A stretch of 57,986 nt of DNA from Desulfobacteraceae bacterium (GTDB lineage: Bacteria > Desulfobacterota > Desulfobacteria > Desulfobacterales > JAABSP01). The translations under genes and the position numbers were made by a program. A model generated the notes under the pieces. That model ran no database searches. It was not told the DNA's origin and saw only the letters and a program-made list of their open reading frames with translations. How positions within the stretch are numbered: the stretch's first letter is position 1; every line of letters starts with the position of its first letter. This document shows, one piece after another, positions 3,875-56,867 of this stretch. Where the stretch lies: the NCBI GenBank assembly GCA_011390135.1, contig JAABSZ010000005.1:1-57986 (forward strand). Reading direction: 5' to 3'.

Positions 3875-4290
3875 AGGTTCGGGCCGGTGGTGGGTCCCCA
3901 CTCGAGTCCTCCCTTCTTCCAGAGGTAAAAGAGGCTGATCATCAATACGATAATGAAAAAGGAGATCTGCAGCCATCCCTTGACCCCCAGGGGCTCGTAT
4001 GCCACGGCCCAGGAGAAGATGAACGCGGCCTCCACATCGAAAAGGAGAAAGAAGGTGGCTACGAGGTAGAAGGGGACCGGATAGGAGAAACGGGCATGGC
4101 CCGTAGGGATGATCCCGCTTTCATAGGCTCTTGCCTTTTCGGGATTCTCCCGCTTCTCTCCGATCCATGCGGTCAGGATCATTATGACGGCCATGAGGCC
4201 GACAACGATGAGCGCGAAGATCACCAGGCTGGCGAAGCCCGGGTCCCACGGGGAAAAGCTTAGACTGACAGGTTGAAGTGCAGGTTCCAT
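3871..4290 (-). CDS. nuoA: NADH-quinone oxidoreductase subunit A
   Basis: 139-aa three-TM protein with [25 protein letters not shown], the conserved NuoA/ND3 core. It is first in the nuo gene order. Confidence 0.9.
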
Positions 4291-4597: not shown

Positions 4598-5920
4598 ATG
4601 AAAATCTGCATGTTTACAAATACCTATCTTCCCCATGTGGGGGGTGTGGCGCGTTCCGTCTCCTTCTTTACCGAAGACCTGCGGGCAATGGGTCATGATG
4701 TTCTGGTGGTGGCCCCCACCTTTCCAAATGAGGGGGACGAGGAGGAGAAGAGCGCTGAGATAAGCAATGATGAGGATATGGTGCTTAGGGTTCCGGCCCT
4801 TCAGAATTTCAACGGAAGCGACTTTTCGGTGAGGATTCCCCTTCCCTTCATCATCGACGAGAAGATCGACGAGTTCGCGCCCGATCTGATCCACAGCCAC
4901 CATCCTTTCCTGCTGGGAGATGCGGCCATGCGCGCGGCCAAATACCGGGATCTGCCGCTGGTTTTCACGCACCATACCCTCTATGAGAAATATACCCACT
5001 ATGTCTCCTCTAAATCAGACGCGATGAAAAGGTTTGCCATCAACCTCTCTACGGAATACGCCAACATGTGCTGCCGGGTGATCGCACCCAGCGAAAGTGT
5101 TGCCCGGATGCTCCGGAAACGGGGGGTGGAGACCCCGGTGGAGGAGCTGCCTACCGGGGTGGATATCCGCTTCTTTGCCAACGGCAGCGGCGACAATTTC
5201 CGGCAGGAGCTGTCGATTCCACAGGATGCCTTTCTGGTGGGCCACCTGGGACGCCTTGCCTTTGAAAAGAATCTCGATTACCTCACCCAAGCCGTGGTCG
5301 AATTTTTGAAAAACCATCCCAACGCCGGATTTCTGGTGGTGGGCAGCGGCCCCAGCGAGGAAGATATCCTTGAGATTTTTGAGGAGAACGGAGTGTCGGA
5401 TCGGCTCTTCATGGCCGGAAAACTGACGGGGCAGGCCCTGAGCGATGCCTACCATGCAATGGATCTTTTCGTCTTCTCATCCAGATCCGAGACCCAGGGG
5501 ATGGTGCTGGTGGAGGCTATGGCCGCGGGCAAGCCGGTGATCGCACTCGATGCATCCGGGGCAAGAGAGGTGGTTGAAGATGGGGAGAACGGAAGGCTTC
5601 TTCCGGCAGAAACCCCGGCAGAAGAATTTGCCGAAACCATAAAAGAGGCCGCAGAAGATCCGGATCTTTTAAAAAAATGGGCAGACAAGGCATTCGAGAC
5701 CTCCCGCCATTTCTCCAGAGAGGTCTGCGCGACCCGCCTGCTGGGGATTTACGTCGAGACCATCAAAGAGCATGACGCTTCCAAGGGGAAAGAGGATCTC
5801 GATATATGGGATGATCTTCTCCGGAGCATCAAAGTGGAATGGGAACTCTTGTCGGAAAAGGCGGCCGCGGTGGCCGGCATCATGAAGAGCGATGATGCCC
5901 AAGAGGTGGAACTTGATTAG
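4598..5920 (+). CDS. GT4-family glycosyltransferase (resembles diacylglycerol glucosyltransferase-type enzymes)
   Basis: N-terminus MKICMFTNTYLPHVGGVARSV and C-terminal ..FVFSSRSETQGMVLVEAMAAGKPVIA (E-x7-E GT-B/GT4 signature). GGAG lies 7 nt upstream of the ATG. Confidence 0.85.
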   Translation: MKICMFTNTYLPHVGGVARSVSFFTEDLRAMGHDVLVVAPTFPNEGDEEEKSAEISNDEDMVLRVPALQNFNGSDFSVRIPLPFIIDEKIDEFAPDLIHSHHPFLLGDAAMRAAKYRDLPLVFTHHTLYEKYTHYVSSKSDAMKRFAINLSTEYANMCCRVIAPSESVARMLRKRGVETPVEELPTGVDIRFFANGSGDNFRQELSIPQDAFLVGHLGRLAFEKNLDYLTQAVVEFLKNHPNAGFLVVGSGPSEEDILEIFEENGVSDRLFMAGKLTGQALSDAYHAMDLFVFSSRSETQGMVLVEAMAAGKPVIALDASGAREVVEDGENGRLLPAETPAEEFAETIKEAAEDPDLLKKWADKAFETSRHFSREVCATRLLGIYVETIKEHDASKGKEDLDIWDDLLRSIKVEWELLSEKAAAVAGIMKSDDAQEVELD

Positions 5921-19651: not shown

Positions 19652-20539
19652 ATGATCGTATCCATCGGAGAAATCCTCTTTGATCGGTTTCCGAATGGAA
19701 AACGGATGGGCGGGGCCCCCTTCAATTTTGCCTTCCATACCCATGCGCTTGGGTTTGAAACCCGATTTATCAGCCGCGTGGGCAAGGAGAGCAACGGAGA
19801 GGAGATCCTCTCATTTTTAAAGGCGAATGGATTCGACGCAGAGTACATTCAGATGGATGAGGATCACAAAACCGGCGAAGTGATCGTGACCGTAAAGCCC
19901 GACGGCAGCGCATCCTTCGACATCGTCCGGGATGTGGCCTATGATCACATCACTTACTCCCCGGATCTCTCCCGGATGCTTTCCCGGGCCGATCTCATAT
20001 ATTACGGCACATTGATCCAGCGAACCGATCACGGATTCCAAAACGTCCGGAAGATGCTGGCAGATCGGGGGGAGAAGACCCGGACCCTCTACGATGTCAA
20101 CCTGCGGCCCGATTGCTATAACCGCAAGATTATCGAAGCCTCCCTGGACCAGTGCCATATCCTCAAGCTCAACGATGAGGAGCTGCCGGTCATTCGTGGG
20201 CTGCTCTCCTTTGGCCGCGGGGATGACTCGTTTATCGAACATCTTTTTGGAAATTATCCCATCGAGATGATCTGTCTCACCCGCGGCGGGGCCGGCAGCC
20301 GCCTCTATACCGAAAGCGAGAGGGTCGAGGCCGAGCCGGAAAAGGATCTGAAGATTGTGGATACGGTGGGCGCGGGCGACGCATTTACCTCGGTTCTGGC
20401 CATCGGAATTCTAAAGGGGTGGCCCCCGAAAAAGACGCTGGAGACCGCCACCCGGTTCGCCGGCAAAATCTGCAGGATTCAGGGAGCGATTCCCGAGTCA
20501 CAGGATTTCTATCGGGATTTTTCCTCCATCTTTTCATAA
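19652..20539 (+). CDS. PfkB-family carbohydrate kinase, fructokinase-like
   Basis: IVSIGEILFDRFP..GGAPFNFA at the N-terminus and DTVGAGDAFTS near the C-terminus (PfkB signatures). It lies immediately upstream of sucrose synthase. Confidence 0.85.
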   Translation: MIVSIGEILFDRFPNGKRMGGAPFNFAFHTHALGFETRFISRVGKESNGEEILSFLKANGFDAEYIQMDEDHKTGEVIVTVKPDGSASFDIVRDVAYDHITYSPDLSRMLSRADLIYYGTLIQRTDHGFQNVRKMLADRGEKTRTLYDVNLRPDCYNRKIIEASLDQCHILKLNDEELPVIRGLLSFGRGDDSFIEHLFGNYPIEMICLTRGGAGSRLYTESERVEAEPEKDLKIVDTVGAGDAFTSVLAIGILKGWPPKKTLETATRFAGKICRIQGAIPESQDFYRDFSSIFS

Positions 20540-20567
20540 TCCAAAGAACGACAAAAAAGGGTTTTTT

Positions 20568-22973
20568 ATGCAAGGTCTTTTAGAGAGCATCATCCCCAAT
20601 GATGAGAAAAGGGATTTCAAAGAGTTCATCTCCATGCTCACCCAGCAGGAGAAGAAACTACTGCTGCGAAACGATATCATACTTGCATTTGAACGATTCT
20701 GCGACTCCCAGGGCAAGGAAGAATCCTATAAAACCGCATCCGCGACCGTTCGCTTTTTGAACAAGGTACAGGATCTTTTTATCCTGGAATCCTACACCGT
20801 CATCTCCTATCGACACGCGCTGGCGCGCTATCGGCTCCTGATGCTTCGAAATGACGCGGAATATATGGAGGAGATCTCGACGGATCAGTACCTCGAGTTC
20901 AAGGATCGCTATTTCGGCGGAGGATCTGCAGAGGATCGGATGCGCCATCTGCACCTCGACTTCAAGCCCTTTTACGATTTCTCCCCCTCCATCCGGGACC
21001 CGAAGAAGCTGGGCAACGGCATCCGTTTTTTAAGCCGCTATCTCTGCAGCAACATCTTCCAGCATCCCCGGGAGTGGAAGCGCAAAAGCTTCGACTTCAT
21101 CAAGCTCCACAAGTACAACGGGACACAATTGCTTATCAACGGGGAGATCATCGAAAATTTCAGGCACTGTCTGAACGAGATCGAGAAGATGATCGCCCGC
21201 CTCGAAACCCTGCCGGCCGAAACACCTTACAAGGAGGTGGCTTCGGACATGAAAAAAGCCGGGTTCGAGCCGGGCTGGGGAAACAGTGTGGGCCGGATCG
21301 TCGAGAGCATGGAGATGCTCAAGGAACTGATCGACGAGCCCACGGATGTGATGCTGGAAAGCTTCCTCTCCCGGGTGACGCTGCCGCTGATCTCCAAGAT
21401 AGCGATCCTCTCTCCCCACGGCTGGTTCGGCCAGGAGAACGTACTGGGAAAGCCGGATACCGGGGGGCAGGTGATCTATATCCTGGATCAGGTCCGGGCT
21501 CTGGAGAAGTATCTGGAAAAGGAGATCGCCCTAACGGGCCTCGACATCAAACCCCAGATCATCGTCCTGACCCGGCTCATTCCCGATGCCGGAAACACCT
21601 CCTGCGATCAGCGAAAGGAGAAGATCCACGGCACCGAGAATGCATGGATTGTCAGAATCCCGTTTAGGGATCAAAACCAGAACGTGATCCGCCACTGGAT
21701 CTCCCGCTTCAAGATATGGCCATACCTGGAGCGGTTTGCCGGCGATGCCGAGACCGAACTGATGCACACCTTTCAGGGAAGGCCCGATCTGATCATCGGC
21801 AACTATTCGGACGGCAATCTGGTGGCCACTCTCCTTTCCGACAAGATGAATGTGATCCAATGCACCATCGCCCACGCGCTGGAGAAATCGAAATACCTTT
21901 TTTCGGACCTCTACTGGCAGGATATGGAGAGGGAGTACAACTTTTCCATTCAGTTTACAGCAGACATGCTGGCCATGAACAAGTCCGACTTCATCATCAC
22001 CAGCACCACACAGGAGATTGTGGGAACCGAATACGAGATGGGGCAGTACGAGTCCTACCAGTTCTTCACCATGCCCCAGCTCTATCAGGTGGTGAGCGGC
22101 GTCAATCTCTTCGCGCCCAAGTTCAATGTCATTCCGCCTGGTGTGGATCAGCAGATCTATTTCCCCTATACGGCTGCGGATCAGCGGATTCAGCACCAGA
22201 CCCGGAAATGGGAGGGCCGCCTCTTTACGGAGAGTTCTGATGAGATCTACGGAGAACTGGATGCGCCCGAGAAGCCGCCGATCTTCACCATGGCCCGCTT
22301 TGACAAAATCAAAAACATCACCGGGCTCATCCAAGCCTTTGGCATGAGCCGGAAACTGCGGGAGAAGTACAACCTCGTCTTTGCGGCCGGAACCATCCAT
22401 CTGGATGAATCCCAGGACGAGGAGGAGCGGGAGCAGATCCGCCAGGCCTATGCTCTGATCGACCAGTATCAGCTTCAGGGAAGCCTCCGGTGGCTGCCGA
22501 GCATTCCCAAGCTGGAGACCGGAGAGGCCTATCGTGTAATTGCAGACCGCAAAGGCTTTTTTGTCCAGCCGGCTCTTTTCGAAGCCTTCGGCCTCACCAT
22601 TCTTGAGGCGATGGCCTCGGGGCTTGTCACCTTTGCCACCCATTTCGGCGGGCCCAGGGAGATCATCCGGGATGGTCAGGACGGCTTTCTGATCAATACC
22701 AGTGAACCCCAGCTCATCGCAGCGGCCATTGAAGGATTTGCCGACCGGGAGGAGAAAAATCCCGATCTCTGGAAGGAGATTTCAGAAAAGGGCATCGAGC
22801 GGGTCCGGGAGAGCTTCACCTGGAGCCTCTACAGCGAGCGGCTCATCAATCTGGCGAAACTGTATGGATTCTGGCGGTTTAGCGTCTCGGCAGAGGGAAA
22901 GAAGAAGATGGACAGGTACTGCGAATTCATCTATCATTTTCTCTACAAAGAGCGGGCCGAACAGCTTGAATAG
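20568..22973 (+). CDS. Sucrose synthase (GT4, EC 2.4.1.13-type)
   Basis: 801 aa with long colinear blocks typical of plant and cyanobacterial SuS: ILSPHGWFGQENVLGKPDTGGQVIYILDQVRALE, WISRFKIWPYLE, PDLIIGNYSDGNLVATLL, CTIAHALEKSKY, QFTADMLAMNKSDFIITST, FTMARFDKIKNITGL, QPALFEAFGLTILEAMASGL.TFAT..GGP.EII. Confidence 0.93.
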   Translation: MQGLLESIIPNDEKRDFKEFISMLTQQEKKLLLRNDIILAFERFCDSQGKEESYKTASATVRFLNKVQDLFILESYTVISYRHALARYRLLMLRNDAEYMEEISTDQYLEFKDRYFGGGSAEDRMRHLHLDFKPFYDFSPSIRDPKKLGNGIRFLSRYLCSNIFQHPREWKRKSFDFIKLHKYNGTQLLINGEIIENFRHCLNEIEKMIARLETLPAETPYKEVASDMKKAGFEPGWGNSVGRIVESMEMLKELIDEPTDVMLESFLSRVTLPLISKIAILSPHGWFGQENVLGKPDTGGQVIYILDQVRALEKYLEKEIALTGLDIKPQIIVLTRLIPDAGNTSCDQRKEKIHGTENAWIVRIPFRDQNQNVIRHWISRFKIWPYLERFAGDAETELMHTFQGRPDLIIGNYSDGNLVATLLSDKMNVIQCTIAHALEKSKYLFSDLYWQDMEREYNFSIQFTADMLAMNKSDFIITSTTQEIVGTEYEMGQYESYQFFTMPQLYQVVSGVNLFAPKFNVIPPGVDQQIYFPYTAADQRIQHQTRKWEGRLFTESSDEIYGELDAPEKPPIFTMARFDKIKNITGLIQAFGMSRKLREKYNLVFAAGTIHLDESQDEEEREQIRQAYALIDQYQLQGSLRWLPSIPKLETGEAYRVIADRKGFFVQPALFEAFGLTILEAMASGLVTFATHFGGPREIIRDGQDGFLINTSEPQLIAAAIEGFADREEKNPDLWKEISEKGIERVRESFTWSLYSERLINLAKLYGFWRFSVSAEGKKKMDRYCEFIYHFLYKERAEQLE

Positions 22974-31015: not shown

Positions 31016-34000
31016 CTAGTTCCTCTGGGCGCCGAGCATCTGCCGATGAAGCCGCTCGGCCCTGAGGCAGAAGGTCTCCAGTTTCGCGTTGACCAGTTGC
31101 GGAAAGGGCGATCCGTCGGTTTCGATGGCGAAAAAGGGCAGATCGTCGAAATGGGTCAGGGTGGCGCGAAGCCGATCATCCCCGGGATCGGTGGAGAGTT
31201 TCCGCTCCTTGACCATCGAGGTTGCCAGAATCGATTCCGACAGCCGGTTGGGCATACAGCCAAAAGGGCCGATAGCGATCACGCCGCAGACATCTGTTGC
31301 GATCTCCGCAAGGGATGCACCCACCGTCAGCACCGCCTCCCCTGTCAGATTCACGCCGATGTCCGGGCTGGCATTTTGGATGATCTTTTCGATATCCACG
31401 GGATGGAAATCGATCAATCCTGATTCGGCCAGAATCGACTTCAACCGCCGCTCACTTCTGGACATATACCGCTTTTTCAGAATGCCTTTGAGCGCCTTCA
31501 ACGGCGTGACCTTCCCCCCGCAGATCCCGTTGTAGTAGAGATAATCGCAGTAGAGCACCCACTCCGCGATGGGGGAACAGGTCACTGCAAACCCCTTCTC
31601 CGCAAGCTTTTCCGTGAGATACTGTCGGGAAAGGCCATCTCTTCTCACATAGATCTCTCCGGTGAGCGCAACCTTGGGAACCGCGTCCACGGGCCGGCTC
31701 AGAGGAATCTCCTTCAGGCGGGCAGCGGATTTCCTGGCAATGGCCGAGATCTCCTCAAAGCCGCCGTACTGAATGCCGAAGAGGATCTCCTCCCACTCCT
31801 GGTCCAGAAGCGAAACAGCGCCACCCGGATCGACAGCATTGGCCAGCAGCATCGCGCGCATGTCCTCCATCGCATCCGACAGAAGGACGGCCCACCAGGC
31901 CCGCCGCTCGAACGCGGCGCTCATCCCGGAGTAGGAGTCTTCTCCGCTCAAGGAGAAGAAGGCCACATCCGGGATCTGGTGCCGCTTGATCAGCTCCTGC
32001 ATGAAGATGGAGTACTGGCCGAAGCGGCAGGGGCCCGAGGCCGTGGCCATGAAATATACCAGCACCTCATCCGGCTTTTTCCGGTTCCGGATGAAGTCGA
32101 GGAGTCCTCCCGTGGTGAGCTGCAGCGGGAGGCACTCCTTGCAGGTGGTGTTGGCCCGGCCCAGCTTCAGCACGGCCTCATCCGCAGGGGCCAGATGCAC
32201 CGCATTGACCCCTTCCGCGCGGAAGACCGCGGTGATGGCCTCTGTGGAATAGCGGCCCATAGAGGGGGTGAGAAAGACCACCCGCGGGTCCGTAAAGGCC
32301 AGTTTCTCACCGGAGGAGGCGATCACCTTGATTCTGCCATCTTCCCGAACCGTCTCTGCCGGAACAAAGCCGTTCTCCCGGACCGGGGGAAGCCGGTCTG
32401 CGGCCTGCTGCTGCCGGTATGCGGCCACCACATCGAGAAATGCCTCGATTCTCGTCTCCAGACCCGCGTCCGCGGTGTGGCTGTCCAGCTCCAGGGTCAG
32501 GGCAGGCTTTCTGCCCATCAGATTTCTGAAATAGGTGATGATAAATGAGTCAGGGCCGCAGGAAAAGTTTGTGATATAGACCCCGAATAGCTGGGGATGG
32601 CGTTCGGCCAGGGCCGCGGCCTTCATGATGGTCTGCCCCAGGCCCCAGTACATGTGGCCCATGAGTGGTTCCTCTTCATAGGGAAGGAAATCCATGGGGA
32701 TCACCATCACCCCCCGGGAGGCGAGCTTTCTCGGGATGCCCATGTGGGCCTCCTCGGCAAAGCCGCTGTAAGGCCGGGCAAAGATCACGGCCGCGATCCG
32801 CTCCGGATCGGCCTCAAGCTCTGCCAGCGCCTCTTTTCCCATCCTCTTCATCCGTTCGACAGCCTCGGCCTGCGCGGCAATGGCCTTATCGACCGCGGCA
32901 TTGGCCTTTTGGGCATCCACCCCCATCTCGGCCGCAGCCGAAACCAAGGGCTTTCGGATCGTGTGCAGCCCCTTTGTCAGATCAATGAGGGGCGAGATCA
33001 CCGCAGTCCCAACTCCTTTTAACCGGTCCAGTTCCGCCTTGAAGGTGGTCTTGAGATAGAAGGTCTCCCCCTGCACAAGAGGACAGACCTGTGCGTTGCA
33101 ATCTTCAATCTGGGTGGGAACCGCCTTGAAATGGGGCAGGAAGAGATACTCGGGGGGGCTCTCTTCTGCGATCAGTGCATGGAAAAAGCCGTGGGCCAGC
33201 TCTGCGGGAAAGCAAAAAGGCGCGTTGCGCCGGTCAATACCCGCTTCGGAAGGCTCGTCCGGAATCACCGGTTCAAAGCCGATCTCGGAGAAGAAGGTCG
33301 CATACAGGGGAAAGTAGGTGTTGACCAGAAAGCTCCGGTTGAAGCCGATCCGGGGCCGCGGACTCTTCTCCGGAAGCTTTTCCGAAAGGATTTTCGGTAG
33401 GCTTTCCGGCTTTTTCGCCTCCGCTTCGAAGACGATCCGCTGGCGGGCCCCCACCAGATCGAGCTTGATGATGTCGTACCGGATGTTCCGGCGGAGGTTG
33501 TAATACCGATTGCATGCGCCGCCAAAGGGGTACTTCTTCCCTTCCAGGTCGATGACCGCGATCTCGCAGTGGCGGTCGCACCGCTCCTTTCCGCCCTTGC
33601 AGGTGAAGGATTTCCCGTACTTCACATCCCGGTCGATAAGGGTCTGCAGGTCGAAGCGTCCGGCCTCCATCAGCCCCGCGTCGATCCGCTTCTCCACTTC
33701 GAGTGCCACCCCGAACGCGCCCATCAGCCCCGGCTCCGGCGGCACCACAATGGGCTTTCCGAGGATCGAGGCCATGGCCAGGGGAACGGCCCGGTTGTAG
33801 CATACCCCGCCCTGCATGAAGATCTTCTCCCCCACGGGACGGTTCCCCTTGACCCGGTTGCAGTAGTTCATGGATATGGAGTAGACCAATCCTGCCACCA
33901 CGTCGTTCTGTCGCACCCCGTCATGGATCGCGGTCTTGATGTCCGAAGAGATGAAGGCCGCGCACTGGTCGTTGAAGTTGGGAGGACGCTCCCCTTTGAC

Positions 34001-35413
34001 CGCGATCTCCGCGATCCCCTCCATGGGAATGCCGAGGGTCTCCAGGGCCGACTCCTCCAGAAAGGAGCCCGTGCCGGCCGAGCAGGCCTCGTTCATGGCA
34101 TAGTCCGACGGAACCCCGTTGGTGATGTAGGTATATTTGGCATCCTGCCCCCCGATCTCCAGGATCGTATCCACCTCGGGATCAAAATAGACCGCTGCGG
34201 CCGCGTGCGCGATGATCTCGTTAATGACGCCGTCGGTGAGCCCGTGGAGCCCCGCGATCTGCCGCCCCGATCCGCAGACCCCCAGCCCGATGATTTCGAT
34301 CGTCTCCGGATCGATTTTCTCCTTCACCTGATCGAGGATGCTCCGGTAGCACTCCCGGGATGCCCCCACCGGGTTGCCGTTGGTCTTGAGATAGACCGAC
34401 GCGAGGATCGCACTCTCTTTCGTTCGCATCAGCACGGCCTTTGTGGTGGTGGAGCCGACATCGAGCCCCAGGATGCAGACGTCTCCTTCTGCGACCTCCC
34501 CTTTTGCGATATCCTTGAACGCGACCGCGTCCTCGAAGTCGGAGAGGCGGGGCAGAGTGTCGAAGGTGGCAGCGTCCGGCAGGAAGAGTTTTGCGCTGTC
34601 GTCCGAGGTAAAAGGCCGGGTCTCGTTGGTGAGAGCCCAGAGCGCTGCCCCGAGTGCCTCGAAATAGGGCGCCTCCGCGGGAACGATCAGCCCCGGGATC
34701 TCCTCTTCGAGATAGCGGACCATCACCGGGTTGCGCACCGTACCGCCGGTGATCATGACATTTCGCTTCTCCACATTCTTCAACAGCTCTAAAATCTTGT
34801 TGGACATCATCCGGCAGAGGCCCGCGGTGACCCGCTCGATGGGAACCCCTTTATTGGTTGCATGGGTGCAGTCCGACTTGCAGAAGACCGAACAGCGGCC
34901 CGAGAGCCGGTAGGGCGAATCGGTATCTGCAAGATCCCCCACAGCCTCCACCGGCACATTGAGGCGCCGGAGCTGCTGGAGAAAGAACTCTCCGGTTCCG
35001 GATGCGCACTTGTTTCCGGTAAGCACATTTGCGATCTGGCCTGCGCCGTTGAGAACATAGGCCATGAAGGTTTCCCCGCCGGCCGAGACCACGGCCGGGC
35101 AGTCCACCCCTTCGGGCTTCACATGGCGGTAGGCATACTCCACGGCCTCGGGCTCGGAGATCTGGGAGAGGTTGACAAAATGGCGGAACCGCCGGCCCGT
35201 GACCGCGATCCGGTCGAACTGATCCGGGTTGATCTCCGCGAGTGCGTCGCTCAGGGTCTGCCGGGGATCGCCGCCGTGGGGATGGAGGGAGTGGCGGATC
35301 ACCCGAGGCCTGCCCTCTGCGGAGGGTTCGGCTCCTGCAATCCAGGGCTGCGGGGTTTCCAGTTGTACGGTTGAAATGGTCGATGCGCCGATGCAAATAC
35401 CCAATACCTTCAT
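31016..35413 (-). CDS. Giant CoA-substrate-specific enzyme activase-type protein: two BcrAD/BadFG/HgdC-like ATPase domains plus two DUF2229-like domains
   Basis: 1465 aa. Domain 1 has GICIGASTIS..CASGTGEFF..CSVFCKSDCTH. Domain 2 has LGLDVGSTTTKAVL..ACSAGTGSFLE..QCAAFISSDI (ASKHA-fold activase motifs with cluster Cys). The remainder resembles the conserved C-terminal extensions of the ~1400-aa acyl-CoA dehydratase activase-related proteins. Confidence 0.85.
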   Translation of the reverse strand: MKVLGICIGASTISTVQLETPQPWIAGAEPSAEGRPRVIRHSLHPHGGDPRQTLSDALAEINPDQFDRIAVTGRRFRHFVNLSQISEPEAVEYAYRHVKPEGVDCPAVVSAGGETFMAYVLNGAGQIANVLTGNKCASGTGEFFLQQLRRLNVPVEAVGDLADTDSPYRLSGRCSVFCKSDCTHATNKGVPIERVTAGLCRMMSNKILELLKNVEKRNVMITGGTVRNPVMVRYLEEEIPGLIVPAEAPYFEALGAALWALTNETRPFTSDDSAKLFLPDAATFDTLPRLSDFEDAVAFKDIAKGEVAEGDVCILGLDVGSTTTKAVLMRTKESAILASVYLKTNGNPVGASRECYRSILDQVKEKIDPETIEIIGLGVCGSGRQIAGLHGLTDGVINEIIAHAAAAVYFDPEVDTILEIGGQDAKYTYITNGVPSDYAMNEACSAGTGSFLEESALETLGIPMEGIAEIAVKGERPPNFNDQCAAFISSDIKTAIHDGVRQNDVVAGLVYSISMNYCNRVKGNRPVGEKIFMQGGVCYNRAVPLAMASILGKPIVVPPEPGLMGAFGVALEVEKRIDAGLMEAGRFDLQTLIDRDVKYGKSFTCKGGKERCDRHCEIAVIDLEGKKYPFGGACNRYYNLRRNIRYDIIKLDLVGARQRIVFEAEAKKPESLPKILSEKLPEKSPRPRIGFNRSFLVNTYFPLYATFFSEIGFEPVIPDEPSEAGIDRRNAPFCFPAELAHGFFHALIAEESPPEYLFLPHFKAVPTQIEDCNAQVCPLVQGETFYLKTTFKAELDRLKGVGTAVISPLIDLTKGLHTIRKPLVSAAAEMGVDAQKANAAVDKAIAAQAEAVERMKRMGKEALAELEADPERIAAVIFARPYSGFAEEAHMGIPRKLASRGVMVIPMDFLPYEEEPLMGHMYWGLGQTIMKAAALAERHPQLFGVYITNFSCGPDSFIITYFRNLMGRKPALTLELDSHTADAGLETRIEAFLDVVAAYRQQQAADRLPPVRENGFVPAETVREDGRIKVIASSGEKLAFTDPRVVFLTPSMGRYSTEAITAVFRAEGVNAVHLAPADEAVLKLGRANTTCKECLPLQLTTGGLLDFIRNRKKPDEVLVYFMATASGPCRFGQYSIFMQELIKRHQIPDVAFFSLSGEDSYSGMSAAFERRAWWAVLLSDAMEDMRAMLLANAVDPGGAVSLLDQEWEEILFGIQYGGFEEISAIARKSAARLKEIPLSRPVDAVPKVALTGEIYVRRDGLSRQYLTEKLAEKGFAVTCSPIAEWVLYCDYLYYNGICGGKVTPLKALKGILKKRYMSRSERRLKSILAESGLIDFHPVDIEKIIQNASPDIGVNLTGEAVLTVGASLAEIATDVCGVIAIGPFGCMPNRLSESILATSMVKERKLSTDPGDDRLRATLTHFDDLPFFAIETDGSPFPQLVNAKLETFCLRAERLHRQMLGAQRN

Positions 35414-48647: not shown

Positions 48648-48911
48648 TCATTTTTCCGCAGGATCATCGGCCTCCTGCTCCTGCACCACCCCCATCTGGC
48701 GCACCACTTCCCGGACATGCTCCTCATCTCCGGTTTGGCCCCTTTTCCGCTCGTCGAGCTTCTGCACCGCAGATGTCCGGCCGTAGAGCATTATCGTATC
48801 ATAGGGAAGCAGCTTCGTATTTCCCATGGGCCCGCCGATATAGGTTCCGTCCTTCCGGGTGACGAGAATCGAAAGAACCATTATTGTCAGCAGCGTAATA
48901 AGAGAAAGCAT
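48648..48911 (-). CDS. 87-aa protein with one TM helix and a TrkA-C/RCK_C-like segment (possible remnant)
   Basis: MLSLITLLTIMVLSILV, then TRKDGTYIGGPMGNTKLLPYDTIMLYGRTSAVQKLDE, which resembles RCK C-terminal domains. It sits 15 nt from both neighbours. Confidence 0.45.
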   Translation of the reverse strand: MLSLITLLTIMVLSILVTRKDGTYIGGPMGNTKLLPYDTIMLYGRTSAVQKLDERKRGQTGDEEHVREVVRQMGVVQEQEADDPAEK

Positions 48912-48926
48912 AATCCCAACTGATCG

Positions 48927-50282
48927 TCAGATCTCTTTGACGGCCTTGCGGGCCGCGACCACAACCGGGTCCCAGACCGGAGAGAAGGGCGGCGCGTAGC
49001 TCAGATCGAGAAAGACCATCTGCTCCACCGTAAATCCGGCATGAAGGCAGGTGGCAATGGTGTCGATCCGCTTGCCGGACTCCTGTTTGCCCACGATCTG
49101 GCCTCCCAAGAGCCTTCCGCTCCCCTTTTCCGCATGGATCTTGACCGTGATCTCCGCGGCCCCGGGATAGTAGCCCGGCTTGTTCCTGGTCTTGACCTTT
49201 CCGGTGATGAACTCCCACCCCAGATCCTCGATCTCCTTTTGGCTCAATCCGGTGCGGGAGATCTCGGTCTCCATGAACTTTGTGATGGCCGTTCCGATCG
49301 CACCCGGAAAGACCGCATCGTCGCCGCCGATGTTGATCCCGGCCACCATCCCCTGCTTGTTGGCAACGGTTCCCAGTGCCACATAGAAGGGCTTTTTGCT
49401 GATCAGGTGATGGGTCTGGACGCAGTCTCCCGCGGACCAGACGCCCTCGATCCCGGTCTGCTGCCGCTCGTTTACGATGATGCCGTCCCGGACGCCTACG
49501 GGAATCCCGGCCGCCTTGGCCAGATCCGAGTTGGGCCTCACCCCGGTCCCGAGAACCACGATGTCTGCCGGCAGCACCCGGTTTTCCGTGATCACGGCCG
49601 TGACTTTTCCGTCCTTGAGTTCGATGCCGGTGAGCGCCTCCTCCCGGTAGAGGTGAATCTTGTGATCGATGAGTGACTGGGAGACGATCGCGCCCATATC
49701 CGGGTCCAGCGTCCCCATCACCTCGGGAGCCATCTCCACCAGCGAGACCTCCATCCCCCGCATCAGCATGGCCTCGGCCATCTCCAGGCCGATGTATCCG
49801 CCGCCGATCACCACGCCCCGCCTCGGCTTCTCCCGATCGACCACCCCCTTGAAGATCATCCCGCTCTTCAGGGTCGTGAGCGCGTAGATCCCCTCCGCAT
49901 CGATGTTTTCGATGGGTGGGCGGAGCGCGACCGCGCCTGTCGCGACCATCAGTTGATCAAAGGGCTCCCACCACTCCTTTCCGGTATCGAGATTTTCGAC
50001 CCGGACCCTTCTGGCGGAAAGATCGATCTCCGTCACCTCATGGCGAACATATGCGTCGATGTCCTGATTCTTCTTGAAGGCTTCCGGGGTTCTTGCCACC
50101 AGATCGTTTTCGTCATCGACAAGACTGCCGATGTAATAGGGAACCCCTCAGGCCGAATAGGATGTGTGCGGACTCTTTTCAAAGGCTATGATCTCCATCT
50201 CCGGCTTCCGCCGACGGGCCTGGGAGGCCGCGCTCATCCCGGCCGCGTCTCCGCCGATTACTACCAGTCGCTCTTTTTTCAT
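48927..50282 (-). CDS. FAD-dependent pyridine-nucleotide-disulfide oxidoreductase of the CoA-disulfide reductase/NADH oxidase family, with in-frame TGA (predicted selenocysteine) at codon 45
   Basis: Track ORF 48927..50099 lacks the FAD-binding N-terminus. The same frame continues upstream: ATG 50282 (AGGAGG 8 nt upstream), MKKERLVVIGGDAAGMSAASQARR..SPHTSYSA-TGA(50148..50150)-GVPYYIGSLV.. The TGA aligns with the family's catalytic Cys (S-[FY]-x-x-C-G-[LIV]-P-Y). Confidence 0.75.
50114..50133 (-). promoter_or_regulatory. Candidate bacterial SECIS hairpin
   Basis: mRNA 5'-CAUCGGC[AGUCUU]GUCGAUG-3' forms a 7-bp stem starting 14 nt after the UGA, with a G at the second loop position. An outer helix GGGGUUC (50141..50147) / GAACCCC (50086..50092) encloses it. 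Confidence 0.45.
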
Positions 50283-51250
50283 CTGAATTCCCTCCTTGTC
50301 TGAAGGCTGATATGTTCAGGGTTCTCTTCGATTCCGTCTCCGCTTTTCAACACCCTCTCCGCTTCTCGACACCCTCTCCGCTTCTCGACACCCTCTCCGC
50401 TTCTCGACAAATGCTGGGAAGAATCTGCGGTCGAATGAGGAGCATGTCCCAGATCCCATCCCCTTTCATCATCATGGTGAAACCGCTGTTTCCGATAATG
50501 GCCGAAACCGCGGCCCTCCCACATCCGAACCTCCAGTTCGATCTGATCTCCCTCCACCGAGATGGTATTGTAGGCGTTCTTCTCCTTCCGGACCCGGTTG
50601 GAGGTGGCTGTCCCCGCCTGGATTACCAGCACGGAGCGGGCCAGAGTCCGGTAGACGGAATGGGAGCCGCCAGCGTAGCTCATATGAAAGTGGCCGGCCA
50701 GGAGCAGATCGAGGTTGCAGCTCTCCAGGGTCGTAAGAACCTTTCCAGCGCTGCCCATCAGCCGCCTTTTCAGGTCGTCCGGTGGCGGCAGAAAGGGATG
50801 GTGGGTGACCAGGATCTTCCGGATCTCCCGGGGAATCCCGCAGAAATGCTCCCGGATGATCTCCACCTGCTTTGCAGAGATGCTGCCGTTCGTGAAGGTG
50901 AAGGATCTCGCGGTGTTGACCCCGAGTACAGCGATCTCGTCATCGGCATAAAACGGGCTGAAATCGTTAGTGATATACCGCTCAAACCGCTTCAATGGCC
51001 GCAGAAACCGCCGGCCCACATCATACAGGGGAACATCATGGTTTCCCGGAACCACGATCTTTTGAAAGGGAATCCGCCTTAAAAAATCCCTTGCCGCTCG
51101 ATACTGCCACGGCCGGGCCCGCTGGGTCAGATCCCCGCTCACCGCCACCAGATCGGGATTCAGCGATTTCAAATCCGCCACCAGAGCCTCTGCGATTTCC
51201 GGGACCACCCTGCCGAAATGGATGTCTGAGATATGTGCGATCCGCTTCAT
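50279..51250 (-). CDS. Calcineurin-like metallophosphoesterase
   Basis: IAHISDIHFG, VSGDLT, VPGNHD, and GHFH later on are the MPE motifs. ATGA overlaps occur at both ends (with the lipid-kinase gene and the Sec-flavoprotein gene). The C-terminal ~45 aa are low-complexity and encoded by a 19-bp tandem repeat. Confidence 0.85.
   Translation of the reverse strand: MKRIAHISDIHFGRVVPEIAEALVADLKSLNPDLVAVSGDLTQRARPWQYRAARDFLRRIPFQKIVVPGNHDVPLYDVGRRFLRPLKRFERYITNDFSPFYADDEIAVLGVNTARSFTFTNGSISAKQVEIIREHFCGIPREIRKILVTHHPFLPPPDDLKRRLMGSAGKVLTTLESCNLDLLLAGHFHMSYAGGSHSVYRTLARSVLVIQAGTATSNRVRKEKNAYNTISVEGDQIELEVRMWEGRGFGHYRKQRFHHDDERGWDLGHAPHSTADSSQHLSRSGEGVEKRRGCREAERVLKSGDGIEENPEHISLQTRREFR
50332..50407. 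repeat. 19-bp tandem repeat: 3 perfect copies plus 1 degenerate copy
   Basis: caccctctccgcttctcga occurs at 50351..50369, 50370..50388 and 50389..50407. It is preceded by ttccgtctccgcttttcaa (14/19 match). Confidence 0.9.
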
Positions 51251-52155
51251 TCTTCAAGCTTTGGGATCATCATCCGCAGATATCGGGGCCGGATTCGGAA
51301 GTTCAAGGGCGTTCGAAACCGGACGAACTCGCCGTCGGCCAGGGCCTTGAGCCTCTTCTTCCGGCTGTGGATCGTAAATTCCTGGGTCAGAATCGACTTG
51401 AGTTCCGGAACCTCCTTGAACCGGCGCTTGAAGATCGCATAGAGCCCCAATTTGAACATGAAGAGCCGGGCCGGGGGCTTGACCTGGGGAGAATAGAGAA
51501 CGCTCAGGTTCCCGTCCGTCAGGGAGAGACGCTGCATCAGAGAGAAGATATCGGTCTCGAACCGGTTGACCCCCACAAATACAAAGGGGGCACGGATGAA
51601 TTCGGCATCATCCACAGATTCCAGATAGCCCGACATCAGGGGCGGCTGGAGTGCAGCCTTGAACGCGGCAAACGCGACCGCGGCAATCTTCCCGATATTC
51701 ATCTTTTTCCGATACACCTCCCGCATCTCCACGGCCTTCCGATGGATGCCCAATGAGATATTGTGGACAAAGATATAGCCGTTGATCTCCCCCACATCGA
51801 TCTCTTCGATCCGGCCCGCCGTCAGGGTTTTGACCGCGGTCTCCACATCCAGCGGTATGTGAAGATCCCTTGCGATCAGGTTGAAGGTACCCAGGGGAAG
51901 CACGCCGATGGGCTTTTCGGTTCCCGCGAGCGCGTTGACGGTTCGGTTGATGGTTCCGTCGCCTCCGCCCACGATCAGGATCTCCGAAGAACTCTCTGCG
52001 GCTTTCAATATCTCCTTTCCCATGTCATCGGGAGGGGCCCAGACCAAGCGGGAATTGGGGCAGCAGGTTTCAAAGAGCTGAACCAGATGGGATCTCCGCT
52101 GTCGGCCTCCGGCTCCGGAAAAATAACCGGCTCCGAGGTTGAGAACCACGACCAT
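51247..52155 (-). CDS. Diacylglycerol-kinase-catalytic-domain lipid kinase (YegS/BmrU family)
   Basis: ILIVGGGDGTINRTVNAL..PIGVLPLGTFNLIARDL is the DAGK_cat signature. The start is set at MVVVLNLG (52155) because the track start 52338 would overlap the upstream gene by 116 nt. Confidence 0.8.
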   Translation of the reverse strand: MVVVLNLGAGYFSGAGGRQRRSHLVQLFETCCPNSRLVWAPPDDMGKEILKAAESSSEILIVGGGDGTINRTVNALAGTEKPIGVLPLGTFNLIARDLHIPLDVETAVKTLTAGRIEEIDVGEINGYIFVHNISLGIHRKAVEMREVYRKKMNIGKIAAVAFAAFKAALQPPLMSGYLESVDDAEFIRAPFVFVGVNRFETDIFSLMQRLSLTDGNLSVLYSPQVKPPARLFMFKLGLYAIFKRRFKEVPELKSILTQEFTIHSRKKRLKALADGEFVRFRTPLNFRIRPRYLRMMIPKLEE

Positions 52156-52222
52156 CGACTTCCGGGACAAGCCATGGTCCTGTTCCAGGTTTTCATCGGG
52201 AACGGATGAATTCAATGAAGGA

Positions 52223-52597
52223 TTACCTCCGCTCCTTTGCCGCAAAATCTTTGAAATAATCGAGGATCGTCTTCTCCTTGTAATCGGTGAACTCCCCGGC
52301 ATCGAAGAAGACGCCGTAGCAGACCCCGCAGGATTCATACCAGATATGGGGCTGATCCTTGTCCACCATCCGGATCATCTGAGCCCGGCAGACCGGGCAG
52401 TTGACCTCATCGATCTCATTGTATTTTCTGCCGGTCTCCGGATCACCGGAATCGATGATCTCAGAGCCGGGAATCCCTTTGAGCTTTTCATGCTCGAGCA
52501 TGTCGAACCAGAGCCCTTTACAGCCAAGGCAGCGGTCAACAGTCACCTCATCGTATTCGATCTTCTCCATATCCGTTTGGCACTTGGGGCATTTCAT
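52223..52597 (-). CDS. TFIIB-type zinc-ribbon (zf-TFIIB, PF13453-like) protein, two ribbon units
   Basis: MKCPKCQTDMEKIEYDEVTVDRCLGCKGLWFDMLEHEKL and CPVCRAQM..ESCGVCYGVFFDAGEF. AGGAGAG lies upstream of the ATG at 52597. Confidence 0.75.
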   Translation of the reverse strand: MKCPKCQTDMEKIEYDEVTVDRCLGCKGLWFDMLEHEKLKGIPGSEIIDSGDPETGRKYNEIDEVNCPVCRAQMIRMVDKDQPHIWYESCGVCYGVFFDAGEFTDYKEKTILDYFKDFAAKERR

Positions 52598-54135: not shown

Positions 54136-55347
54136 TCACCGCTTGCTGATCCGGTCGATATAGCTGAAGGTGTAGTCGAATTTCCCATCGGGGCCCGGAA
54201 CCGCTTCGATCTCCGTCAGATAGACCGTATCCGATCCCCGGTGGTCCGCCGGGCCAAAGGATACAAAATAGCCCCCGAGATCCGCGTTTGACATGGATTC
54301 GATGGCCCGTTTCAGCCGGGAGAAGTCGGGCGCGTCCCCCGCAGCCCCGAGGGCCATGTCCATCGCCTTGGCCGCAAGAAAGCCCTCGAGGCTGACAAAG
54401 CCGAAGTCGCTGCCGCCGATGGCATCCTGATACTCCCGCACCACAGGGACTCCCGCATCCCAAGGGTCCGGGACCACCTGGCTGATGAAAACATTTGCGG
54501 TGTTTCCCCGCAGGGATCTGGCCAGGGCATGGGAGCCCACAAAGGAGATGTTCATGAAGACCGCATCGAAATCGAGCCTTCGCCACATATTGATCGCGGC
54601 CGCACAGGGGAGATAGGCGCCGACCATGATCACCGCATCCACCCGGTTTCCCGCGATCTGGCGCACACTCTGCCCCACCTGAAGGCTGTTCCGTTTATAG
54701 TTGGGAACGAATCTCCAGAACTTCTCCCATTCGGCGTCCGTTGCCCCATCTGGGGGTATGGAGGGAAGGGCCGGAATGATCTCGATGCCTTCGATTTGGG
54801 AGACGGCCTTGCGTGCGCCCGATACTCCGGCAAGGCCGAATGCATCCCGCTGGACAAACAGGGAGATCTTTTTGACCCCGACATCCTCTTTGAGTCGGCG
54901 GATCATGTTCTCGATCTCCGCATCATAGCTCGCGCGCAGGCTGAAGGAATGGGGATTGGCTCTGGGGTCGCTGAGAAAATCCGCGCCTGTAAACGCACCG
55001 AAGAAGATGGTGTTCGCGGCTTTGGCAAGGGGAACCGCCACCTTGGAAGTGGGGGTTCCCACATAGCCGAAAAGGGCATGAACCGGTTCTGCAACAAAGG
55101 CTTCGGTGTTTTGGATGCACCGATCCGGCTCATACCCGTCATCCTTTACGAGCAGGCGGATGTTCTGGGCGTTACGATCGAAATAGGCCGTTGCCCCCCG
55201 GTGCATCTGGGTCCCCAGAAAGGCCGTGGGTCCTATGAGTGCGCAGGATTGCCCCAGAACCGTCTCTGAAAAGGCTGGGGACGCGCAAGTCAGTCCACCG
55301 ATAATCAAAATCGCAATTGCCGAAATTCCCAAAGCTTTTTGTCGCAT
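54136..55347 (-). CDS. Periplasmic substrate-binding protein (Leu/Ile/Val-binding, Peripla_BP_6-like); no permease or ATPase genes adjacent
   Basis: Signal peptide plus LGQSCALIGPTAFLGTQMHRGA..YF.. and overall type-I SBP architecture. GGGGAGG RBS present. Confidence 0.75.
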   Translation of the reverse strand: MRQKALGISAIAILIIGGLTCASPAFSETVLGQSCALIGPTAFLGTQMHRGATAYFDRNAQNIRLLVKDDGYEPDRCIQNTEAFVAEPVHALFGYVGTPTSKVAVPLAKAANTIFFGAFTGADFLSDPRANPHSFSLRASYDAEIENMIRRLKEDVGVKKISLFVQRDAFGLAGVSGARKAVSQIEGIEIIPALPSIPPDGATDAEWEKFWRFVPNYKRNSLQVGQSVRQIAGNRVDAVIMVGAYLPCAAAINMWRRLDFDAVFMNISFVGSHALARSLRGNTANVFISQVVPDPWDAGVPVVREYQDAIGGSDFGFVSLEGFLAAKAMDMALGAAGDAPDFSRLKRAIESMSNADLGGYFVSFGPADHRGSDTVYLTEIEAVPGPDGKFDYTFSYIDRISKR

Positions 55348-55473: not shown

Positions 55474-56535
55474 TCAGCTTTGGGCGTCCGCGATGGCCAC
55501 CTCTTCAAAGGTTTTGATCTCGCAAAGGATTCGGGTCGCGGCATCCATCAGCTCCATTGCCAGAGCCGCACCGGTTCCCTCTCCGAGCCGGAACCGGAGA
55601 TCGAGCAGCGGCTGAAGATCGAGGCGCTCCAGCATATACCGATGCCCCACCTCCACCGAGTTGTGCCCGGCAAAGAGATAGGCCCTTGCAGCCGGGGCCA
55701 GCTCACACGCAACCAGTGCCCCGGCCGTGGAGATCAACCCATCACAGATCACCGGAATCCCTTTTCCGGCCGCACCGATCACCAGACCCGCAAGACCTCC
55801 GATCTCACATCCCCCCACCTTTGCCAGCACGTCGATGGGATCGCGTGGATCTGGACGGTTCCGCGCCAGCCCGGTTTCGATAGCCCGGATCTTCCGCGTA
55901 AGCCCCGCATCATCCACGCCTGTCCCTCTGCCGGTCAACCGCTCCACAGGAATGCCGGAAAAGGCCGCGATGATCGCAGTGGAGGGAGTCGTGTTGCCGA
56001 TGCCCATATCTCCGGTTCCCAGAAGATGAAGCGGCTCCTTTTCCATCAGTTCGTTGACGATCTCGATGCCGGCCTCGATACTTTGGACCGCCTCCTCCCG
56101 GGTCATGGCAGGCCCCTTGGCAAAGTTTCGGGTCCCTTTGCAGACCTTTTTGTGAAAGATCGGCAGATCCGCGGGGAAATCTCCGCACACCCCCAGGTCG
56201 GCAACCCTCACCTCGGCCCCGGCATGACGGGCCAGCACATTGATGGACGCGCCGCCATTGACGAAGTTCATCACCATCTGCCGCGTCACCTCCGAGGGGA
56301 AGAGGCTCACCCCCTCCTCGCAGATGCCGTGATCTCCGGCGCAGGTGACAATCGCTTTCTTCTCCAGACGCACATCCAGGGTCTTGAAGATTCCGGCAAG
56401 TCTTGCAGAGATCTCCTCCAGCATCCCGAGGCTTCCCGCGGGCCGGGCATGATTCCGGAGGCGATCTTTTGCGGCCTCATAGATTTGGGCATCCGGGGAT
56501 TGAATTCCATCGACGGTCTTTTTCAGAAGCTCCAT
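55474..56535 (-). CDS. cobT: Nicotinate-nucleotide--dimethylbenzimidazole phosphoribosyltransferase
   Basis: GDHGI..EGVS..P..VT.QM..NF..GGA.IN, GDMGIGNTT and LGEGTGAALAM are CobT motifs. GGAGG lies 5 nt upstream of the ATG at 56535. The track start (TTG 56571) lies inside the riboswitch terminator. Confidence 0.92.
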   Translation of the reverse strand: MELLKKTVDGIQSPDAQIYEAAKDRLRNHARPAGSLGMLEEISARLAGIFKTLDVRLEKKAIVTCAGDHGICEEGVSLFPSEVTRQMVMNFVNGGASINVLARHAGAEVRVADLGVCGDFPADLPIFHKKVCKGTRNFAKGPAMTREEAVQSIEAGIEIVNELMEKEPLHLLGTGDMGIGNTTPSTAIIAAFSGIPVERLTGRGTGVDDAGLTRKIRAIETGLARNRPDPRDPIDVLAKVGGCEIGGLAGLVIGAAGKGIPVICDGLISTAGALVACELAPAARAYLFAGHNSVEVGHRYMLERLDLQPLLDLRFRLGEGTGAALAMELMDAATRILCEIKTFEEVAIADAQS

Positions 56536-56569
56536 TCTTACCTCCATCTCTTTGTCATGATTTTCAGGC

Positions 56570-56850
56570 AAAAAAAAACCGTGCTACAGGATTTATATCT
56601 GTAGCACGGAATCTGTCGGACGCATCTTCCTGCGGTTATGGCAGGTCTTCTGGCTTGCAGATCTTTCCGTGGCCCGCGCCTTCCCGCACTATAAAACATC
56701 GGGGATTTTGAAAATCCATATCCGATGCTTTAAAAAAGCAGTGGCAATATGCGGGGCCGGTCCCTGCTTACAGCGCCGGTCCAACGCTGCGGATTCTCAC
56801 CGCATTCCCTTTTCACCGCCCAAAAAGGCGACACCACAACCGGTCAAGAG
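56570..56850 (-). promoter_or_regulatory. Cobalamin (B12) riboswitch with intrinsic-terminator expression platform, upstream of cobT
   Basis: The minus strand reads ..GGTGAAAAGGGAATGCGGTGAGAATCCGCAGC..GGACCGGCGCTGTAA..GCCACTG..(variable hairpin)..GGGAAGGCG..AAGCCAGAAGACCTGCC (B12 box, 56640..56656). Then CCGTGCTACAG-atataaatc-CTGTAGCACGG-T9 follows (56570..56609). Confidence 0.85.
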
Positions 56851-56867
56851 AGTACACCATCGGACGG

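Follow-up and report, generated by a model that had tools for sequence, protein, structure and literature searches.

The 57,986-nucleotide stretch analyzed here, referred to as the window, covers positions 1 to 57,986 of contig JAABSZ010000005.1 of a Desulfobacteraceae bacterium (assembly GCA_011390135.1). A gene on its minus strand was originally predicted to encode a selenoprotein, with an in-frame TGA at the catalytic cysteine position of a flavoprotein. The observation is confirmed and its interpretation is supported. With a probability of about 0.9, a single functional gene here encodes a 451-residue oxidoreductase, dependent on flavin adenine dinucleotide (FAD) and NAD(P)H, of the coenzyme A (CoA)-disulfide reductase (CoADR)/NADH oxidase (Nox) group, in which selenocysteine (Sec, U) replaces the catalytic Cys. 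The gene is a new, currently mis-annotated member of an already known selenoprotein family.

The reading frame begins with ATG at 50282..50280 and remains open to a TGA terminator at 48929..48927, and its sole interruption is the internal TGA at codon 45. The 44 sense codons before this TGA encode MKKERLVVIGGDAAGMSAASQARRRKPEMEIIAFEKSPHTSYSA, and the product continues beyond it with GVPYYIGSLVDDENDLVARTPEAF. The structural claims of the original prediction were all recovered: the caller of open reading frames (ORFs) lists only the last 390 codons, AGGAGG lies 8 nt upstream of the ATG, the 44 upstream codons supply the Rossmann GxGxxG motif (GGDAAG, residues 10 to 15), and translation gives an intact frame on both sides of the TGA. 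As gene callers annotate it, the locus would yield two products, one a peptide of 44 residues that stops at the TGA and the other a protein of 390 residues initiated at GTG 50099. Such an arrangement is extremely unlikely. The 390-residue product would have neither the FAD-binding GxGxxG motif nor the catalytic residue, no Shine-Dalgarno-like sequence can be read before GTG 50099, and the 17 codons between TGA and GTG, which keep the frame, encode a peptide (GVPYYIG..VD) that all homologues conserve.

Profile searches of the 451-residue product were run with Cys placed at residue 45. Pfam domain Pyr_redox_2 covers residues 5 to 293 (E = 3e-55), the NAD(P)H-binding domain Pyr_redox covers residues 156 to 233 and includes GGGYIG at 160 to 165 (E = 3e-21), and the C-terminal dimerization domain Pyr_redox_dim covers residues 332 to 436 (E = 2e-15). 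The best NCBIfam model is that of CoADR (TIGR03385), in which residues 5 to 444 of the protein align with model positions 1 to 439. Matches to solved structures span residues 3 to ~447, the best being the “NADH oxidase” of Thermus (6RUZ; E = 5e-107), followed by the CoADRs of Pyrococcus horikoshii (5L1N, 4FX9, and 3KD9; E of about 1e-96, with 2e-96 for 4FX9). The best 120 database homologues share 58 to 63% identity with the product, and nearly all have 450 to 455 residues. Owing to these domain matches and structure alignments, and to homologues of matching length with an aligned Cys, the protein is classed as a class I pyridine-nucleotide-disulfide oxidoreductase of the CoADR/Nox group with a single redox center.

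The internal TGA occupies the position at which this group carries its redox-active Cys, as originally claimed. The single-Cys loop S-[FY]-x-x-C-G-x-P-Y lies near residues 42 to 45, and the UGA codon fills its Cys position. The active-site Cys of “S..xCG.PY” stands opposite residue 45 in 6RUZ, 4FX9, and 5L1N. Alignment with full-length orthologues, suggested with the original prediction, placed Cys in the TGA column in 117 of the best 120 homologues, within the motif SYSA-C-G[ILVM]PYY. The corresponding motif in the window protein, U45-G-V-P, fits the general form U-G-x-P. The P. horikoshii enzymes (CoADR/polysulfide reductase) and Thermus Nox are homologous to the window protein over its full length and share with it the FAD motif GG.AAGMSAA, the S..xCG.PY loop, and the C-terminal dimer-interface motif LDL.YAPPF.PVWDP. 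Nevertheless, they use Cys where the window protein has the predicted Sec, and identity is only moderate.

The TGA form of this gene is widespread. A DNA pattern back-translated from T-S-[YF]-[SA]-A-TGA-G-x-P-Y-Y was searched against 185,579 species, each represented by one genome, and matched in 105 species genomes, compared with about 0.4 expected from the information content of the pattern. All 105 loci encode homologues of the window protein (46 to 66% identity) with the TGA at the same position. Complete frames of 430 to 470 codons are present at 84 of them; among the others, most run off the end of the sequence piece that was fetched, and a few contain an internal stop that shortens them. 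Carriers belong mainly to Desulfobacterota (Geobacteraceae, Desulfuromonadales, Desulfobulbaceae, Desulfobacteraceae, and Syntrophobacteria), and further carriers were found among Chloroflexota (Anaerolineae, Chloroflexia, and Thermomicrobiales) and in single metagenome-assembled genomes (MAGs) labeled Rokubacteria, Nitrospinota, and Acidobacteriota. Cultured carriers include Geobacter hydrogenophilus DSM 13691, Pelotalea chapellei DSM 13688, Geomobilimonas luticola JCM 17780, Desulfoprunum benzoelyticum DSM 28570, Desulfoferrobacter suflitae DRH4, two Desulfacinum type strains, and Thermalbibacter longus. One locus on a contig labeled Dongiaceae (L032, DATNCC010000134.1) is identical to a Geobacteraceae MAG (L071) in its N-terminal protein sequence and over the 60 nt that start with the TGA; it probably reflects contamination during binning and not a true alphaproteobacterial carrier.

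Cys-containing homologues of the gene exist side by side with independent TGA-containing orthologues. After the sister strain described below, the nearest relatives of the window protein are other Desulfobacteraceae TGA forms at 64 to 66% identity, compared with 63% for Cys forms. A rough Fitch count on a crude tree (unweighted pair group method with arithmetic mean, identity distances) gave about 23 Sec/Cys switches among 276 sequences. No neighboring gene family was common to more than six of the 105 TGA-form loci, and gene context therefore offers no functional clue.

A hairpin downstream of the UGA, which the original prediction counted as part of the Sec-recoding signature, is present and resembles a Sec insertion sequence (SECIS). 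It occupies nt 18 to 37 counted from the U of the UGA (50133..50114) and comprises an 8-bp stem closed by the 4-nt loop GUCU, with a folding energy of -10.1 kcal/mol. A first fold of 76 nt had a z score of only -1.27. The signal resides in the 20-nt hairpin, for which z is -4.07 and none of 200 shuffled sequences was as stable. The published bacterial SECIS (bSECIS) model describes a loop of 3 to 9 nt, a stem of 4 to 16 bp, a UGA-to-loop distance of 16 to 37 nt, and a minimum free energy of ≤-7.5 kcal/mol, with a G within the first two loop positions that is usually followed by G or U (PMC13188914). The window hairpin agrees with this model on all four criteria (4-nt loop reading G-U-C-U, 8 bp, -10.1 kcal/mol, and a spacing of 22 nt, i.e., nt 4 to 25 on the same count). 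Like the SECIS of Escherichia coli fdhF and the bSECISearch consensus, it is a stem-loop within the coding sequence (CDS), just 3′ of the UGA, whose loop opens with G and then U. It differs from the fdhF element in having no sequence similarity to it and no evident bulged U in the stem.

The hairpin is kept in register in an ungapped alignment of 96 distinct TGA-form sequences; for counts of covariation, its stem was taken as seven pairs. At pair 19-36, GC occurs in 80 to 81 sequences, AU in 12 to 13, GU in 3, and A-C in none (Fisher p = 1e-13), meaning that an Ile/Val codon covaries at its first base with the synonymous third base of an Asp codon located five codons further on. At pair 18-37, UA (39 sequences) alternates with CG (31 sequences). 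Double changes (UA/CG and GC/AU) occur in two of the seven pairs counted. Paired cells make up 91.7% of the total, compared with 15 to 65% when the partner is slid by one to three columns, and double-change cells, counted irrespective of phylogeny, number 43, compared with 21.2 ± 3.5 in shuffled alignments, none of which reached 43 in 500 trials. The first loop position (column 26) is G in 85 sequences and A in 11; the loop AGUCUU of the window is unique among the 96.

A set of 108 distinct Cys-form sequences, with the same motif and TGY in place of TGA, served as a control. Synonymous sites within the stem are frozen in TGA forms: third-position entropy is 0.00 at both codon 7 and codon 8 and reaches only 0.51 at codon 11 and 0.65 at codon 12, whereas in Cys forms it is 1.4 to 1.8 over the same codons (1.52 at codon 7 and 1.38 at codon 8). 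The RNAalifold consensus energy is -6.01 kcal/mol for TGA forms and -0.12 kcal/mol for Cys forms, and no consensus hairpin was found by RNAalifold in the 108 Cys forms. Furthermore, A-C combinations do occur, as do GTG and GTA valine codons, in the 16 Cys forms whose peptide is likewise [IV]..VD. The structure therefore goes with the TGA and not with the peptide.

The closest relative of the window is contig JAABSP010000008.1 of “Desulfobacteraceae bacterium S15.Bin039” (locus L042, one of the 105 TGA-form hits, from an NCBI MAG), which is 100% identical to a Logan contig (L001) carrying protein P0001. Given a DNA identity of 96 to 97%, the window comes from another strain of the species of S15.Bin039. 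Over the selenoprotein gene (~96% nucleotide identity), S15.Bin039 keeps the TGA and both of its flanks. Sequencing or assembly error at 50148..50150 is vanishingly improbable, as the TGA and its flanks are identical in this separately assembled relative and the TGA is found in 104 other species. The two strains differ at 58 CDS positions, 45 of them synonymous and 13 nonsynonymous. Synonymous divergence (dS) is 0.154 and nonsynonymous divergence (dN) is 0.0128, and their ratio, omega, is 0.08 (binomial p = 2e-17 against neutrality). The same omega holds over the 406 codons downstream of the TGA; these codons are under purifying selection, and the gene therefore does not end at codon 45. The original prediction had named decayed copies in close relatives as the mark of a pseudogene; the S15.Bin039 copy is intact.

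A nonsense-mutated pseudogene, in which TGC or TGT became TGA in a gene already dead or in decay (perhaps following a recent loss of the Sec trait), was weighed against this evidence. Only a single-base change from TGY to TGA would be needed, Sec machinery was not seen within the window, and a few of the 105 TGA loci have shortened frames (e.g., L011, L044, and L066), several of which are in long-read MAGs, in which frameshift errors are plausible. Nevertheless, decay is very unlikely. Across 105 species at 46 to 66% protein identity, this TGA is retained in mostly intact frames, the hairpin is conserved specifically with the TGA and shows compensatory changes, and a protein without its FAD-binding N terminus would escape selection of the strength seen after the TGA. 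Recoding to Sec, as originally proposed, fits these observations better than gene death.

Low-level insertion of Trp or Cys at UGA is known in bacteria. The UGA might accordingly be read without Sec, either by a near-cognate tRNA inserting Trp or Cys or as a sense codon in the genetic code of the organism, and the JGI gene caller did place W at the Sec position in two homologues. However, TGA is the commonest stop in the window and terminates 15 of its 33 Pfam-supported genes, including the selenoprotein gene and the gene just upstream, so that UGA is not reassigned. In addition, the enzyme would be inactive with Trp in place of its catalytic Cys, the codon translated as W in the JGI protein is TGA in the DNA, and the conserved hairpin, at the spacing of a bSECIS, is a specific feature of the SelB mechanism. 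Readthrough other than by Sec is therefore judged a very improbable explanation. As a side observation, one mRNA has UGA both as the predicted Sec codon and as a stop (50279-50282 and 48927-48929).

Several points weigh against reading the gene as a selenoprotein gene of the CoADR/Nox group. No selA, selB, selD, or tRNA-Sec gene was found in the 58-kb window; it contains no tRNA gene of any kind, and Pfam scans of about 50 of its ORFs gave no SelA, SelB, or SelD. Nor was another selenoprotein candidate found in the window when every TGA flanked by open frame was listed. The covariation counts ignore the phylogeny of the 96 sequences, and L001 and L042, being the same sequence, provide one independent close relative only. 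No Rfam SECIS model matched, either in a whole-window search at gathering thresholds or in a permissive search of 49950..50350 (noise at E of about 1 to 7). With respect to the enzyme itself, the NCBIfam equivalog cutoffs for CoADR were missed (448.1 versus 578.8 bits for TIGR03385 and 421 versus 458 bits for NF007123), and no protein-level evidence for any member of the selenoprotein family was found in the literature searched.

Of the SECIS model comparisons proposed with the original prediction, agreement with the published bSECIS constraints stood and a match to Rfam did not; since Rfam bacterial SECIS models are few and narrow, this miss is unsurprising and constitutes a weak, uninformative negative. 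Because Deltaproteobacteria, the richest Sec users, hold 22 selenoprotein families (PMC1794560), Sec machinery is expected in the host. On this basis of lineage, we infer that the genome encodes selABCD. Insertion of Sec at codon 45 is predicted as well. As the equivalog cutoffs were missed, the enzyme is not named a CoADR in the strict sense, and its substrate may differ: a per- or polysulfide, peroxide, and O2 are candidates alongside CoA disulfide.

The selenoprotein family to which the gene belongs was catalogued as an “NADH oxidase” selenoprotein in Geobacter metallireducens (PMC1794560) and was found in the delta-1 symbiont of Olavius (PMC1976440). It is tabulated in these two sources and in PMC9312934 and PMC13188914, the last two of which list it as a selenoprotein family with the motif UGxP, and its representative is WP_011365774.1 of G. 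metallireducens. As cited by reviews, the first report of the family was a 2004 prokaryotic selenoproteome study. The window gene resembles this known system in protein family (its best NCBIfam hit is TIGR03385), in Sec position and motif (U-G-V-P), in having a coding-region hairpin of the same kind, and in the lineage bias toward Deltaproteobacteria/Desulfobacterota. Carriers of the Geobacter group, e.g., G. hydrogenophilus DSM 13691 (L099), are about 61% identical to the window protein. The latter differs from the known family in originating from an uncultured Desulfobacteraceae bacterium and in sharing ≤66% identity with other TGA forms beyond the sister strain. No biochemical characterization of a Sec-containing member was found in the literature searched.

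A mechanism may be proposed by extension of the established bacterial Sec pathway, with chemistry modeled on homologous CoADR, Nox, and NADH peroxidase (Npx) enzymes. With the ribosome at UGA45, the hairpin 22 nt downstream would present its G-first apical loop to the complex of SelB, GTP, and Sec-tRNA(Sec), which would deliver Sec in place of termination by release factor 2. The final UGA of the gene has no such hairpin and would terminate translation normally. In the folded enzyme, U45 would lie over the flavin as the sole redox-active nucleophile. Its selenolate form would alternate with a selenenic acid or with a selenenyl-sulfide whose partner is CoA or a sulfane-sulfur substrate, and it would be re-reduced by FADH2 with electrons from NAD(P)H.

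The same hairpin, encoded by YY[VI][GA]xx VD, occurs in at least four phyla. Together with roughly 20 Sec/Cys switches, this leaves room for a tentative and rather doubtful idea, in which the Sec form is a widespread, horizontally exchanged unit of gene plus built-in SECIS, the real substrate is a sulfane-sulfur or selenium species, and Sec was chosen for that chemistry. Candidate substrates might be CoA persulfide or polysulfide, rather than CoA disulfide or O2.

The selenoprotein gene is the last of three co-oriented genes, following those for a DAGK-type lipid kinase and a metallophosphoesterase (Table 1). Its start overlaps the stop of the latter in an ATGA, which implies translational coupling and an operon. 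The order DAGK-Metallophos-selenoprotein is confined to a few close Desulfobacteraceae.

Table 1. Coordinates of the selenoprotein gene, its elements, and the co-oriented genes upstream
Feature	Position in window	Strand	Description
Complete selenoprotein CDS	48927..50282	minus	451 codons (U45) plus TGA terminator; class I pyridine-nucleotide-disulfide oxidoreductase, CoADR/Nox type
Shine-Dalgarno sequence AGGAGG	50291..50296	minus	8 nt upstream of ATG; read from sequence
ATGA overlap, Metallophos gene stop/selenoprotein start	50279..50282	minus	
FAD-binding GxGxxG motif GGDAAG, residues 10-15	50238..50255	minus	Encoded only upstream of TGA
In-frame UGA, predicted Sec codon (U45)	50148..50150	minus	Redox-active Cys position; same codon in 105 species genomes
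Bacterial SECIS-type hairpin CAUCGGCA-GUCU-UGUCGAUG	50114..50133	minus	8-bp stem; GUCU loop 50122..50125, starting 22 nt after UGA
Short ORF reported by gene callers	48927..50099	minus	GTG start, 390 aa, “MARTPEAF”; without FAD-binding N terminus and catalytic residue
Second GxGxxG motif GGGYIG, residues 160-165	49788..49805	minus	NAD(P)H-binding Rossmann motif, inside Pfam Pyr_redox 156-233
Calcineurin-like metallophosphoesterase gene	50279..51250	minus	Co-oriented, upstream; Pfam PF00149; gene order same in relative L001
Diacylglycerol/lipid kinase catalytic-domain gene	51247..52338	minus	Co-oriented, further upstream; Pfam PF00781; gene order same in L001

Comparison with the sister strain revealed further differences around the gene. 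The first 234 nt of the CDS show none (P of about 7e-5 under uniform dS), within a 252-nt run of perfect identity to L001 (window 50047-50298) that covers the Shine-Dalgarno sequence, start, TGA, and hairpin. An extra RNA-level constraint on the 5′ CDS was considered and rejected, as the 8.9-kb comparison is patchy: other identical runs in it reach 423, 333, 282, and 268 nt, so that the two strains diverge in a mosaic fashion and the 252-nt run is not special. At the 3′ end of the metallophosphoesterase gene (minus strand, 50279-51250), a 19-nt tandem repeat (window 50337-50409; plus-strand consensus TCTCCGCTTCTCGACACCC) is present in 3.8 copies with 96% matches. The S15.Bin039 gene is 57 nt shorter (three units, in frame) and encodes 304 rather than 323 residues; the repeat thus varies in copy number at the strain level and adds 19 C-terminal residues in the window. 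Just downstream of the selenoprotein gene, a TrkA_C-domain gene lacks 498 bp (166 codons, in frame) in the window relative to L001:8083-8823, at about 48854-48862, leaving an ORF of about 80 codons (48648-48911, minus strand). A 9-bp overlap at the junction suggests deletion between repeated segments.

Other genes of the window include several unrelated to the selenoprotein. A cobalamin riboswitch (Rfam RF00174, 104.5 bits; 56623-56853, minus strand) is located upstream of genes for a cobT-type phosphoribosyltransferase (55474-56571, DBI_PRT) and a periplasmic binding protein (54136-55347). An 828-residue ORF (1490-3976, minus strand) fuses the complex I domains NuoB (Oxidored_q6), NuoC (30 kDa), and NuoD (49 kDa), and adjoins a NuoE-like 2Fe-2S thioredoxin-like ferredoxin (869-1456). 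A 1,465-residue protein (31016-35413, minus strand) has two BcrAD/BadFG ATPase domains and a DUF2229 “CoA enzyme activase” domain, resembling a fused 2-hydroxyacyl-CoA dehydratase activator. Next to the gene for an 801-residue sucrose synthase (GT-B_Sucrose_synth) is one for a PfkB sugar kinase, and a GT4 glycosyltransferase is encoded at another place in the window (19652-22973 and 4598-5920, both plus strand); the sucrose synthase gene is a plant/cyanobacterial-type gene of sucrose metabolism in a Desulfobacteraceae genome.

Truncation or splitting of the gene by standard pipelines, as originally expected, is borne out by public records. Protein P0001 (NCBI/Logan) corresponds to the 390-residue tail, and the Logan contig of the relative carries separate 44-residue and 390-residue calls; the 390-residue product of the window itself has no exact match on record. 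Two JGI proteins, P0059 (L227:74-1429) and P0076, carry W at the Sec position. In L227 DNA the W codon is TGA, followed by the same hairpin, and the gene caller therefore used a UGA=Trp table on a short contig. Translation as W is a third mode of mis-annotation besides truncation and splitting. Because public copies are truncated, split, or translated with W, protein databases under-count the family and lose its active site.

General knowledge of selenoproteins is unchanged by this analysis, whose practical benefits concern annotation and a well-defined SECIS data set. The proper annotation of the gene is a single 451-residue selenoprotein (U45), not a 390-residue fragment. The comparative set, comprising 105 species, a 20-nt hairpin with covarying pairs, and a matched Cys control, yields a clean SECIS signature with which the family could be re-annotated. 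Moreover, the cultured carriers, among them G. hydrogenophilus, P. chapellei, D. benzoelyticum, Desulfacinum spp., and T. longus, are organisms in which both Sec insertion and the substrate of the enzyme are testable.

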